Assembly (NCBI GenBank): GCA_964609035.1
Contig: CAZSQL010000003.1
Span: 4,058-68,057, forward strand
Reading direction: 5' to 3'
From: an uncultured Candidatus Peribacteria bacterium
GTDB taxonomy: Bacteria; Patescibacteriota; Gracilibacteria; Absconditabacterales; Absconditicoccaceae
DNA: 64,000 nucleotides
A program made the translations under genes and the position numbers. This document shows positions 27,905 through 62,670 of this stretch, in pieces (positions within the stretch are counted from its first letter, which is position 1; each line of letters begins with the position of its first letter). The notes beneath the pieces are model-generated. The model did not search any database. It was not told where the DNA came from and saw only the letters and a program-made list of their open reading frames with translations.

Positions 27905-28250
27905 GGAAATTATTTTCTGTCTCCCCATCTTGCAGGCGCGTTGTCATTGCGAGGTTTACTCGGCAGTATTGCCGAGAAATCGAAGCAATCTGCACTCGCG
28001 CCTACATTGATTGTGAGTTTTATTTTCTGTCTCCCTCCTCTTGCAGGCGCGAATTCGAATTCGCGCCTACATTGATTGGAGATTTTGTTTTCTATCTCCC
28101 TTTGTCCTAAATCACCCACTATGCCCCTCTTTGATAAAGAGGGGGAATATTATCTGAATAAGCACCTCTTTGCCTGCCCCGCAGAACTGCGGTTGGTCAA
28201 AGAGGACCACCCTCTCCTCAGAGGAGAGGGGTTGGGGGAGAGGTCTGACT
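27905..28250. repeat. Cluster of GC-rich REP-like hairpins (locus 1)
   Basis: TGCAGGCGCG...CGCGCCTACA units (28041-28070 contains the perfect 24-nt palindrome AGGCGCGAATTCGAATTCGCGCCT). Also CTCGGCAGTATTGCCGAG, CCCCTCTTTGATAAAGAGGGG, CCGCAGAACTGCGG, CCCTCTCCTCAGAGGAGAGGG. Homologous to part of 61090-61250. Confidence 0.75.
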
Positions 28251-31291: not shown

Positions 31292-31682
31292 GGGGATGTA
31301 CAGGCTTCGATGAAAGATTCTCATATCTAATAACTGCCACTACTCGATGAGCGTACCGAGTATACTAATCGCTCAGCATCTAAAAATGCAAACTCAAAAA
31401 ACTTGTTAGCGAGAGCTAACGCCTTCGTTTTGAACTACGCTTAGTTCTACGATTGTATCAACCGGTTCTGCTAGACACCTACTAGGTAGACGGAGACATA
31501 AGTAGGTACCGCTACCTCTGGTAGCAAATGTCGATATGACAAAAAATCCATTGCCTGTTTGTTGGCTTTTGGATTTGCCAGTCATAAGGACACTAAATCT
31601 ACGGCTTAATAAACAAACTATTGTGGTAAGCGTTATTATTTATGTCTTTTAGACGCGAGTTCGACTCTCGCCATCTCCACCA
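31292..31682 (+). ncRNA. ssrA: tmRNA (transfer-messenger RNA)
   Basis: 5' GGGGATGTACAGGCTTCGATG..., 3' ...GGACGCGAGTTCGACTCTCGCCATCTCCACCA (T-arm plus acceptor). Candidate tag frame GCA AAC TCA...TAC GCT TAG gives ANSKNLLARANAFVLNYA. Confidence 0.9.
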
Positions 31683-59280: not shown

Positions 59281-59345
59281 TTATCAACTATCAATTATCA
59301 ATTATCAATTATCAATTATCAACTATCAATTATCAATTAATTATC
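59281..59345. repeat. Tandem ATTATCAA(T/C)T words overlapping the comM-like stop codon
   Basis: TTATCAACTATCAATTATCAATTATCAATTATCAATTATCAACTATCAATTATCAATTAATTATCAAC. Same words as the in-CDS palindrome at 29347. Confidence 0.7.
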
Positions 59346-60896
59346 AACAAACATACTCTTACTTCTATACTGCATAGCTTCAGCCAAATGTTTGATTTCT
59401 AAATTTTCTACTCACTCCATATCAGCTATAGTCCTAGCAAGCTTTATAATTCTATGAACCACTCTTGGTGACAAAACTAATTTTTCAGAAGCATTGGTAA
59501 GGAATTCTTTGATTTCATCTGACAAGGGGATATATTTATCTATATCATTGCTACCCATATCAGAATTAGAAACAATATTTGTACCAGCAAACCTTTGTTT
59601 TTGTATATGCCAAGCTTTGATAATCTTGTCTCTAATGGACTGACTGCTCTCTCATTTTATATTGTCCAAAAGTTTGTCTATATTTTCTCTAGGTATTTCC
59701 AATATCATATCTATCCTATCCATCAAAGGGCCAGAAATTTTACTTTGATAATTTTTTACATCATTTATGCTACAAGTACAAGCTCTTTCTGGATCTTTGT
59801 AATAACCACATTTACAAGGATTCATACTAGCTACAAACATAAAATTAGCCGGATAATTTACACTACCAGATACTCTAGAAATACTAATATTTTTGTCCTC
59901 AAGTGGCTGCCTGAGGACTTCCAATGTCTCTCTAGGAAATTCTGTAATTTCATCAAAAAACAAAACTCACTTGTGTGCCATACTCACCTCTCATGGAGTA
60001 AGATTGGATCATCATCAGACTATAGAAATTTTGGATGCTGTATGATGTACTTGCCTAAAAGGTCTTTGTACAATCAATGGATGTTCTTTGTTTAGTTTAC
60101 CTACTACAGAATAAATTTGAGACACTTCCAAAATTTCTTGAAATCACAATGGTGGCAAAACACTCTTAAGTGCTTTACTAAGCATAGTCTTTCCACTCCC
60201 TGGAGCTCATACCATCAGTAAGTTATGCAAACCAGCAGCAGCGATGGAGAGTGCTCTCTTTGCTAAAATATGTCATTTGATATGTTCAAAATCTACATCA
60301 AAATCAAATTTGATATCATATAATTTCTCTACATCTTTGGATTCTGAAATACAATTTAAATCTAATCAATCAATAAAATATCATACCAATTGATCAAAAC
60401 TATCCAATGGATATATATTTATCCCCGATATGTACTCTAATTCATAAAGATTTTCACTAGGTACAAAGAAATCTTTGTATCATTTTTTGATAGCAGAAAT
60501 CACGGATGGAAGAAGTCAGTTTACTCTTTTGATCTTACCATCCAGTCACAATTCTCCAAAAAATAAATATTTTTGTAAATCTTTTTTATGATTTATACTT
60601 CATTCATGTAGCAACACCAATATAGCTACAGCCATAGAAAGATCGAATGATGTGCCTACTTTTCTAATATCTGATGGCGCTAAATTTAAAACAAACCTTT
60701 TGTTTGGCAATAGTATGCCAACATTGCGAAAAGTCGCTCTAAGTCTTTCTTTAGATTCTTTGATAGCAGCATCTGGGAGTCAAATAATCTCTATACCAGG
60801 CAAAGATCTATTGCAATCCGCTTCTACCAAAATTTCGTAACCATCCAATCATACATTTGTAAATGTTTTTGTCATTCGTACCATCTTGTTATTCAT
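59337..60896 (-). CDS. YifB/ComM family Mg-chelatase-like AAA+ ATPase
   Basis: 519 aa. Lon-like N-domain, MVGAPGSGKTM (Gly is TGA), VLFFDEITEF, MNPCKCGYY. Confidence 0.85.
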
Positions 60897-60989
60897 TTAA
60901 GTATAAAATATCAAAGTTCATTGTCAAAAATATTTTTTACAAAACAAAAATCAAGACTTTTTTTGACAAAAAAATAATTTTTTATAAAT

Positions 60990-61497
60990 TGTAAGGGCGA
61001 TTAGTAATCGCCCCTATTTTATGGCTTTCCGATTTGACGAACTGCATACACCAGCAAAGAAAGATTTTATTTAGTCCACCTCCTATTGCATACACGTTGT
61101 CATTGCGCGAACGTAAGGAGTTCACGACACTTTGGGAAACCTGCGAAACAATCTGAACTAACGCCTACATTTTATCGACTATTTTTACTCTTGTCTTGCA
61201 GGCACGAATTTTTACCAATCCTTTGGTTGGCGAATTCGCGCCCACATCATTTTTTTATATTAAAAACATCTTGATTTGTAGGGAACGCTCGCGCCTGCCT
61301 GCCGGCAAAGGCAGGAGCGTTCCCTACATAAAAAAAACTTTTTGTCGTAAGGGCGATTAATAATCGCCCCTACCTCGTTTTATTTTATTAAATTATACTC
61401 TTTGGAAAAAAATATAATAAAAATGTAAGGAACGGTCGCGACCGTTCCCTACAAAATACATTATTTGTTGTAAGGGCGATTACTAATCGCCCCTACA
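60990..61497. repeat. Cluster of GC-rich REP-like hairpins (locus 2)
   Basis: Five hairpins of the form TGTA(A/G)GG-[GC palindrome]-CC(C)CTACA at 60990, 61277, 61347, 61424 and 61469. Also a degenerate copy (61090-61250) of the 27940-28075 unit. Confidence 0.75.
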
Positions 61498-61533
61498 ACA
61501 AACCTTATAACTTTCAACTTGATAACTTTAGTA

Positions 61534-62670
61534 CTATTTCTTATGGTCCACAGACAACCACCTAAATATCAATATAAAAGACATCAAACCAAACAACAAC
61601 CATCCTAAAACAGCAAAAACAGAAAATCACACTTTTTCTTCAACTTTTTTTTCAACAACAGTATCATCCAATCAAGCTAAATCGCTACAACTAAGTCTTT
61701 TATTTATAGACAATATAATATTTTTTACATCTTGCTCAGCCAATAGATAATTTTCTTTGAGCCAATCACATTCAGCTTTAGATCATTGATAATATTTTTC
61801 CTTATTTACAAGTTTTCTAAATTGAACCGGATCTATTTCATTCAAAAGATTTAACCCAGTAGATGTATAAAAAACAAAATCTTTGTTTGTTATATTTGAC
61901 TTTCCATAAACTTGTTTGTCATGCACCTCAATATTTAATAATATCTCAGAACCCAATGGCAATCGGTTATCTGGATATATTGTCAAATTATTTCCACTCC
62001 ATTCATGCTCTATATTTGATAAATCGTATTTTATATCATCTATAGTAAAATAAATTTTGTCTTTATTGATTCATTTTCATAAATCATAAATATCAAAAAT
62101 AAAGTGAGAATCCAAAGCTACATACTCTCCAGTTTTTAAAATTGGGAACAATAATTCAACAGTAGGGGCTATAATATCTGGTTCACATTCAGGTACTTTT
62201 GCAAACATAAAATCATAAGATTTATTTAACTCTACCATATTACTTTTTGTATCCAAAACATAGCTTCCAGTAGAAAATCTAAGACTAGTAGATATCAAGC
62301 TAGACTCAACCTTAAAAAACAATTTAAAAACAACTTTTTGTAAACCAGAGTCTTGAGTTTTTAGTTTATTGAAAATAATTTTATTTTCCTCAACAACATA
62401 AGTTAAGTTATTTTCTTTTTCTCATTCTGGCAAAACTTTTAATATTTCAACTTCATTTCAATTGTATTCCAATATTGCATTTACTCAAACCACATTTGAA
62501 TAATTTAAAGAAAAAACGACATCCAATTGATTTTCACATCATGCATGAAATTTGTCTGATGGTTGGAATCTCTCAGAACTATAGATAGGATTTAAATTAA
62601 CTTGTGCAATAGTATAAGAAAAAAACAATACACAAGCAAACAAAGACAAAAATATATTAAATTTTTTCAT
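61534..62670 (-). CDS. Hypothetical secreted protein with C-terminal TM anchor
   Basis: 378 aa. Signal peptide MKKFNIFLSLFACVLFF, C-terminal FSVFAVLGWLLFGLMSFILIF. Three same-frame pieces. Confidence 0.55.

Follow-up and report, generated by a model that had tools for sequence, protein, structure and literature searches.

The 637-nt spacer (as delimited under genetic code 25) at positions 60897-61533 of the window, by which we mean the whole 64,000-nt stretch of DNA analysed here (contig C3:4058-68057 of assembly G000), lies between the stop of a 378-aa gene and the start of a comM-like gene and contains an array of GC-rich hairpins. Sequence comparison makes it highly probable, in our view, that this array consists of seven repetitive extragenic palindromic (REP) elements of three related families, all pointing in the same direction, and that they have been multiplied by the genome's own REP-associated tyrosine transposases (RAYTs). 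The repeats fall into defined families, are dispersed over the genome, differ in copy number from lineage to lineage, are present or absent at orthologous sites, and are linked to RAYT genes to the point of being carried in frame inside them.

Work on REPs and RAYTs has been almost entirely on Proteobacteria, with some in Cyanobacteria and Bacteroidota. What the present genome offers is a complete-looking REP/RAYT system in a 1.16-Mb episymbiont-type genome of the candidate phyla radiation (CPR) that uses an alternative genetic code, comprising three REP families, RAYT genes with REPs both beside and inside them, and an array that triples the length of a spacer. The assembly (1,155,794 bp in 83 contigs, 28% GC, estimated completeness 95%) has Candidatus Absconditabacterales metagenome-assembled genomes (MAGs) as its nearest named relatives and reads TGA as glycine (code 25). 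Gene calls with table 11, which gave only short open reading frames around the array, were rejected, as were those with table 4, which held long frames open but placed tryptophan where glycine is needed, for example VWAPGSGKT in the Walker A motif of the AAA+ protein. Because Walker A reads GAPGSGKT only with TGA as glycine, code 25 was applied throughout.

The array and its repeat families

Three classes of repeat unit make up the array. Class A reads GTAGGGGCGATTA-N-TAATCGCCCTTAC (on the plus strand, GTAAGGGCGATTA-N-TAATCGCCCCTAC), class B reads GTAGGGAACGSTCGCGASCGTTCCTTAC (plus-strand form GTAAGGAACGGTCGCGACCGTTCCCTAC), and class C is the perfect palindrome TGTAGGCGCGAATTCGAATTCGCGCCTGCA, identical to the unit of another repeat locus in the window (locus 1, 28043-28070). 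All are GC-rich palindromes of 27-28 nt with stems of 13-14 bp, set in DNA of 28% GC. The class A pattern gives six strand-hits (three sites) in the window against 0.00 expected from 100 dinucleotide shuffles, and a control pattern read backwards has no match in 41 genomes. As RNA, the hairpins of the spacer fold at -16 to -40 kcal/mol (z = -4 to -9.7 against shuffled controls), the plain 27-28-nt units accounting for the range from -16 to -28 kcal/mol. The spacer, its units and the two flanking genes are laid out as follows.

59337..60896, minus strand: YifB/ComM-family Mg-chelatase-like AAA ATPase gene, 519 aa, TIGR00368 543 bits
60991..61017, minus strand: class A REP, its head degenerate (ATAGGGGCGATTACTAATCGCCCTTAC), upstream of the comM-like promoter and start by ~65-95 nt
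61079..61175 (approx.), minus strand: ~95-nt dispersed unit whose feet are of class C (TGTAGGCG...TGCA, minus-strand reading), located by genome BLAST
61197..61246, minus strand: class C-type unit TGTGGGCGCGAATTC...AATTCGTGCCTGCA (minus strand) with a ~20-nt loop insert, located by genome BLAST
61278..61327, no strand assigned: class B REP with a nested GC hairpin (CCTGCCGGCAAAGGCAGG family, ~61290-61319) in its loop, -39.5 kcal/mol
61347..61373, minus strand: class A REP GTAGGGGCGATTATTAATCGCCCTTAC, by pattern match and fold
61425..61452, minus strand: class B REP GTAGGGAACGGTCGCGACCGTTCCTTAC, followed by TTTTTATTAT on the minus strand, terminator-like
61470..61496, minus strand: class A REP GTAGGGGCGATTAGTAATCGCCCTTAC, -28.2 kcal/mol, z -9.7, terminator-like by scan
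61500..61530, no strand assigned: short AT-rich motif (AACCTTATAACTTTCAACTTGATAACTTTAG) directly past the stop of the 378-aa gene
61534..62670, minus strand: 378-aa gene without a family match, its 3' end abutting the REP array

Five of these hairpins had been described in an earlier note on this DNA, which placed them correctly to within 1-2 nt, and the sixth feature it listed, a degenerate copy of the locus-1 unit, is the class C palindrome with its ~20-nt loop insert at 61197-61246. That tally of five plus one was too low, as the spacer actually holds seven repeat units. Both flanking genes have the minus strand as their sense strand, and on that strand every unit carries its head on the 5' side. 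Nearly all of the spacer is repeated elsewhere in the genome, as seen by BLAST of the spacer against the genome. Copies of the 61197-61246 unit, 88-98% alike, occur on contigs C12, C66, C15 and C25, and the ~95-nt unit with class C feet has at least 12 genome copies, one of them directly upstream of a RAYT gene on contig C20. The class A unit at 61470-61496 stands 37 nt past the stop of the 378-aa gene, and its stem reaches 19-20 bp when flanking bases are included. Unit spacing is irregular, as had been observed before, with class A start-to-start distances of 356 and 123 nt and the unit classes mixed, and on these grounds a CRISPR array was rejected. An RNA gene at 61020-61270 was likewise rejected, as that interval corresponds to two dispersed repeat units; searches of the spacer for Rfam families and tRNAs found none that explains it, only sub-threshold look-alikes of microRNA and small-RNA hairpins.

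The families extend far beyond the two loci first noticed in the window. Fuzzy matching (at most 4 mismatches) recovers 31 copies of class A, 13 of class B, 19 of class C and 7 of a related class C', numbers that are lower bounds because the assembly is fragmented and REPs are enriched at contig ends (9 of 70 copies stand no more than 300 nt from an end, a zone that makes up 4.3% of the sequence). Altogether at least 70 class A, B or C copies lie on 30 or more contigs of the 1.16-Mb assembly, with none expected. The exact consensus is found in 20 of the 31 class A copies and in most class C copies. The AT-rich motif next to the 378-aa gene (CTAAAGTTATCAAGTTGAAAGTTATAAGG on the minus strand) itself recurs at ~20 genome sites, directly after stop codons or gene ends, and makes up the 5' flank (AAAGTTATCAA) that is conserved in many copies of class A.

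The two feet of a unit had been described as identical, whereas they differ by one transition (GTAG vs GTAA). GTAG stands at exactly one foot in 52 of 60 copies (at most 2 mismatches), the opposite foot being GTAA in classes A and B and GCAG in class C. On the strand that reads GTAG the foot closes with a G.T or G.U pair; on the other strand it has an A.C mismatch. Since this asymmetry is consistent, an orientation can be assigned to units that are otherwise palindromic. Typical copies read GTAG...TTAC or GTAG...CTGC, and the nested copy at 61278-61327 alone combines GT[AG]G with C[TC]AC, so that both of its feet pair perfectly (GTAGGG...CCCTAC) in a true double foot.

Units are also combined into larger structures. 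Conserved flanks are common to many class A and B copies, and these recur as an A-B-A composite of ~170 nt, for example on C43 (92% over 164 nt) and C9 (90% over 172 nt). A CCTGCC...GGCAGG hairpin is nested inside the loop of class B on C3, C37, C22 and C5, and CCCCGCTATTCAGCGGG inside the loop of class A on C5 and C41. Besides window 61278-61327, such nested copies lie at C37:883-932, C22:8233-8284, C5:43997-44065, C5:26072-26121 and C41:8040-8089. The nesting of REP in REP suggests one of two things: insertion into extruded loops, or copying of the nested composites themselves.

RAYT-like genes and the growth of the array

Three RAYT-like loci (four hidden Markov model (HMM) matches) occur in the genome, on contigs C8, C20 and C1, and the genus as a whole has 1-3 such loci per genome (1-5 HMM matches). 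The gene at C8:11870-12396 encodes an intact 175-aa protein with a histidine-hydrophobic-histidine (HUH) motif, PNHLHGIL, and a tyrosine motif, EYIELNPY. It matches NF047646 ('REP-associated tyrosine transposase') with E = 3e-13 and 49.9 bits, and the E. coli TnpA-REP structure 4ER8 is its best match in the PDB (E = 0.037), with both motifs included in the alignment. A class A REP follows 22 nt past its stop, and a class-A-derived sequence lies within the gene itself, between the two motifs, where it is read in frame as ...AINNRPY. The syntenic orthologue in the congener G002 likewise has a class A REP 20 nt downstream, and the two loci (C8 here, C14 in G002) share a UvrD/PcrA-like gene, a CoA-binding protein and SodA as neighbours. 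These shared neighbours, together with 1-3 loci per genome, indicate a low-copy gene at a fixed position that is inherited vertically. The orthologue in G001 (C15) carries an exact class A REP in frame, read as GAITNRPY, and a paralogue in G007 (C6) carries class B in frame.

The second RAYT (C20:4259-5338; locus L001 994-2073, minus strand) is open for 359 codons, with motifs DHFHILL and KYIQFNY, aligns to 4ER8 on both of them, and scores 70.1 bits against NF047646 and 31.4 bits against Pfam Y1_Tnp, the latter above its cut-off. It is interrupted in frame, between the HUH and tyrosine motifs, by ~330 nt made up of four C' palindromes (GTAAGCGCGAATTCGAATTCGCGCTTGC) and one unit with class C feet, and class C and C' units also flank the gene. 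The arrangement has wide parallels: an internal palindrome is present in 55 of 87 homologous loci from many phyla, mostly as GTAG...CTAC at +240 to +310 nt, and is often identical to palindromes on the flanks of the gene that carries it. The homologues come from a wide scatter of phyla, Cyanobacteria, Bacteroidota and Chloroflexota among them. As intragenic REPs in RAYT genes were already described by Quentin et al. (2018, PMC6006769), the in-frame palindrome is not new. The third locus (C1:66445-67005; L002 1408-1968, plus strand) is a RAYT-like gene of 186 aa with neither an HUH motif (PDRFYFVL in its place) nor a tyrosine motif; most of the eight congeners have matches of this full-length kind, covering profile positions 1-145, and it may be a domesticated, non-catalytic paralogue.

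The growth of the array can be followed among relatives. We compared the genome, at species level for both copy number and presence, with eight congeners (nine genomes in the genus) and with 32 other genera. In this comparison class A has ~26 copies here, ~7, 3 and 2 copies in three congeners, and none in the other five or in the 32 other genera; class C has ~24 copies here, ~7 in one congener and none elsewhere. The gene pair bordering the array (378-aa gene, then comM) is conserved in G002 and G004, and less tightly in G003. Its spacer is ~205 nt in G004, without a GC hairpin, and ~165 nt in G002, with a single class B hairpin 30 nt past the stop. Two closer relatives (87-88% ComM identity) have a different gene upstream of comM and a ~190-nt spacer without a GC hairpin. 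A promoter-like site for comM (TTGACA-16-TATACT at 60927-60900) and an upstream block (TTGTCAAAAAA...CTTGATTTTTGT) are kept in relatives without a REP array, the promoter block being conserved in all relatives compared. Since orthologous spacers carry 0, 1 or 7 units between conserved parts, the array was built in this lineage by the addition of repeat units.

This comparison also bears on whether the hairpins could be folded sites resembling the attC sites of integron cassettes, or sites of another site-specific recombinase, which we find scarcely credible. Hairpin formation and action on a single strand are common to attC-like sites and REPs. The units here are nonetheless near-perfect palindromes of 27-28 nt without extrahelical bases or an R/L box layout, they bound no genes, and what is added between the same two genes in the orthologous comparison is repeat units only. 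They bear, moreover, a GTAG head and are linked to genes for Y1 HUH transposases, not to a tyrosine recombinase.

A further alternative accepts that the units derive from REPs and holds that they are now immobile relics, the RAYTs having been domesticated or inactivated and the repeats kept by drift or host use. The interruption of the C20 gene by ~330 nt of repeat units, the loss of GTAG from the C' copies flanking it, the C1 gene without its HUH motif, the low scores of the C8 protein on family models, and the head of one class A copy in the spacer, degenerate to ATAG, would all fit such decay. We regard it as unlikely nevertheless: the exact consensus retained by so many class A and class C copies points to recent copying, the C8 gene is intact with both catalytic motifs, and copy number differs several-fold between congeners.

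Position, orientation and terminator-like features

Among the 29 class A and B copies with two called neighbours, 18 lie between tandem genes, 11 between convergent genes and none between divergent genes, in a genome where divergent spacers make up 25% of the intergenic DNA. Twenty-six of 33 class A and B copies are downstream of a gene in sense orientation, a bias that at the level of clusters (15 of 22 sense, 7 antisense) is not significant (p = 0.13). Within clusters orientation is uniform: with the asymmetric foot as the criterion, each of the 25 class A/B clusters runs head-to-tail, which does not bear out the suggestion in the earlier note that neighbouring hairpins might form inverted doublets. 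With respect to GC skew, class A copies stand 19:7 in favour of the G-rich strand, class B copies 5:6 and class C copies 12:11; a replication-strand bias was not concluded, being confounded by the strand bias of the genes, 600 out of 936 of which lie on the G-rich strand.

Position past gene ends raises the question of whether the hairpins are merely factor-independent terminators or stabilisers of mRNA 3' ends, one good design selected repeatedly with no transposase involved. A terminator scan of the sense strand does pick out two hairpins, those closest to the stop of the 378-aa gene, and a T-rich tail (at least 6 T in 10 nt on the GTAG strand) follows 8 of 11 class B copies, against 0 of 11 on the opposite strand. 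The preponderance of sense-downstream copies and their absence between divergent genes agree with such a role, as does the fact that sense-strand RNA has G.U where antisense RNA has an A.C mismatch. A genome-wide search for Rho gave no homologue, the top match reaching 30.6 bits against a cut-off of 509, and this too speaks for the terminator reading. The same test, though, finds the tail after only 1 of 26 class A and 1 of 22 class C copies, where the 10 nt hold on average 2.2 and 1.3 T respectively, and in 7 of 22 clusters the units run antisense to the gene upstream of them. Seven units exceed what termination needs, and relatives manage with none or one. Near-identical 27-28-mers with conserved flanks at more than 30 sites, missing from most congeners, argue for copying and not convergence, and some copies sit in frame inside RAYT genes. 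That the hairpins are terminators and nothing else, a possibility the earlier note had set against its own reading, is thus very unlikely, with class B alone resembling an intrinsic terminator as well. Class B probably also terminates or stabilises transcripts in a secondary role, given its place just past gene ends, its sense orientation and its T-rich tail, and classes A and C probably do not.

Relation to known REP systems and genome context

REPs are defined by a GT[AG]G head beside a GC-rich palindrome (Nunvar 2010, PMC2817692; Di Nocera 2013, PMC3733652), and GTAG REPs are found after open reading frames, between tandem or convergent genes, with several families per genome and some copies inside genes (PMC2817692; PMC3733652). 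The elements described here resemble the classical GTAG REPs and bacterial interspersed mosaic elements (BIMEs) of Enterobacteria, Pseudomonas and Stenotrophomonas in their GT[AG]G head, GC-rich stem, several families per genome, location after gene ends in tandem and convergent spacers, species-specific abundance, mosaic clustering, and linkage to a low-copy HUH/Tyr transposase (RAYTs; Messing 2012, PDB 4ER8). Palindrome, head, dispersal, location, variation between genomes and cognate REPs beside a RAYT (a REPtron) are thus all found, as in GTAG-tagged REPs. The suggestion in the earlier note that the units are REP-like, with the hairpin base read by a RAYT-type protein, is supported by the dispersal, the variation between genomes, the RAYT genes and the GT[AG]G head, from which binding of this kind can be predicted. 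Classical REPs are one-footed hairpins with an unpaired 5' head, whereas the present units have a head that is paired through G.T; in BIMEs the orientation alternates from unit to unit at regular spacing, whereas here seven direct units are irregularly spaced; and classical copies usually number in the hundreds, against tens in a genome four to six times smaller. REPINs (REP doublets forming hairpins; Bertels and Rainey 2011, PMC3116915) are similarly non-autonomous, built from REPs and tied to vertically inherited RAYTs, but inverted REP doublets with a spacer were not found among the 25 class A/B clusters. Intrinsic terminators share the GC-rich stem shortly past a stop codon and, in class B, the T-rich tail on the sense strand; they differ from classes A and C, which have no tail, and from units that are multi-copy, near-identical, arrayed, nested and present inside genes.

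The closest known counterpart is TnpA-REP subclass 2.4 with its 'double-foot' REPs (Quentin et al. 2018, PMC6006769), equivalent to RAYT group 4 (Bertels et al. 2017, PMC5581495). A double-foot REP of this subclass has a 5' GT[AG]G and a 3' C[TC]AC on the same strand (PMC6006769), and can be viewed as an inverted REP dimer minus its middle (Quentin et al., PMC6006769). Shared with it are the long GC-rich palindrome, the GT[AG]G head at the foot with a complementary motif at the other end, the enlarged HuH-to-Y distance (~80 aa here), and homologues across many phyla. The present system differs in its host, a code-25 member of the Absconditabacterales (CPR) with 1.16 Mb at 28% GC; in a second foot altered by one transition, which leaves one GTAG per element; in units that run head-to-tail; and in proteins below the curated family cut-offs. 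A literature search, of incomplete coverage and so no proof of absence, found no report pairing RAYTs or REPs with CPR, Patescibacteria, Gracilibacteria or Absconditabacteria, and the repeats in a Gracilibacteria genome preprint (10.1101/595074) were set aside as unrelated, being a coding array of PTD tripeptides. The current understanding of REPs is unchanged by this finding, which is a known kind of system in an unusual host.

Several observations weigh against multiplication of the array by RAYTs of this genome. Homologues score below the NF047646 cut-off of 80 bits (49.9 for C8, 57.6 for G002 and 70.1 for C20; E = 3e-13 to 2e-19), the intact C8 protein has no match to Pfam Y1_Tnp (PF01797 cut-off 23 bits), and its PDB match is weak; the RAYT scores are significant but divergent, the profile being split by the insert. 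No RAYT of the class B type was found in this genome, and in the C' palindromes around the C20 gene neither foot reads GTAG. The GTAG of the units is paired within the stem, unlike the unpaired 5' tag of classical enterobacterial REPs. The sense bias and the class B tail could reflect selection for termination and not a bias of transposition. Mobility is deduced by comparing species that are no more than 43-73% identical in the proteins they share, and with the assembly in 83 contigs and REPs near their ends, counts are lower bounds and part of the context is missing.

On balance we favour the view that the elements are non-autonomous DNA that would be multiplied, and maintained in single-stranded form, by the HUH/Tyr transposases of the genome, which would be of the TnpA-REP subclass 2.4 or RAYT group 4 type and would read the hairpin foot together with the GTAG guide. 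Recognition of foot and GTAG would explain why stems differ and feet are conserved. Catalysis, mobilization by the RAYT and the single-stranded DNA route are attributed here by analogy with the family. A more ambitious combination of ideas, to which we assign a low probability, is that REPs in this Rho-less, minimal genome of 28% GC are still transposing through single-stranded DNA into extruded hairpin loops, that class B has been co-opted as a main source of intrinsic terminators, and that the 'spoiling' of one foot by a single transition is adaptive, since each double-foot element then retains a single cleavable GTAG, by which strand polarity is set. If extruded loops were preferred targets, both the nesting of REP in REP and the recurrent in-frame copies in the RAYT loop would follow.

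Strongly streamlined genomes evidently tolerate and expand such elements. Local peculiarities of this system are that each double-foot element has a single GTAG, that arrays run head-to-tail, that loops hold nested units and that class B is terminator-like. With its small genome, few families and clear single-GTAG asymmetry, it might serve conveniently as a natural case in which to study strand and target choice by RAYTs. REPs are also a likely source of assembly breaks in Absconditabacterales MAGs: small contigs and contig ends carry REP clusters here (for example C9:29-55, C66, C64, C43, C45 and C50), and these clusters are probably the cause of the breaks.

Of the genes bordering the array, the comM-like gene has its closest named relatives among Candidatus Absconditabacterales MAGs, at 87-88% identity. 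The 378-aa protein has a signal-peptide-like N-terminus and a C-terminal membrane anchor, and is conserved in all nine genomes of the genus. Elsewhere in the window, a transfer-messenger RNA (tmRNA) gene lies at 31292-31682 on the plus strand (Rfam 89.4 bits), encoding the tag peptide ANSKNLLARANAFVLNYA.

GC-rich hairpins in this genome are not confined to the classes of the array, a de novo scan having counted 155 of them in about ten families. Families of GC-rich palindromes without GTAG include CCCCTCTTTGAAAAAGAGGGG, often in pairs ~40 nt apart, as well as AACCCCGGGGTC...GACCCCGGGGTT and CCACCCGGGTG...CACCCGGGTGG, and two further ones are CCATCCCGAAATTTCGGGATTG and GGGTTRCAAAG...CTTTGWAACCC. 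Example sites of these families are C2:47904-47968, C4:52832-52893, C26:2511-2575 and C45:5917-5986.

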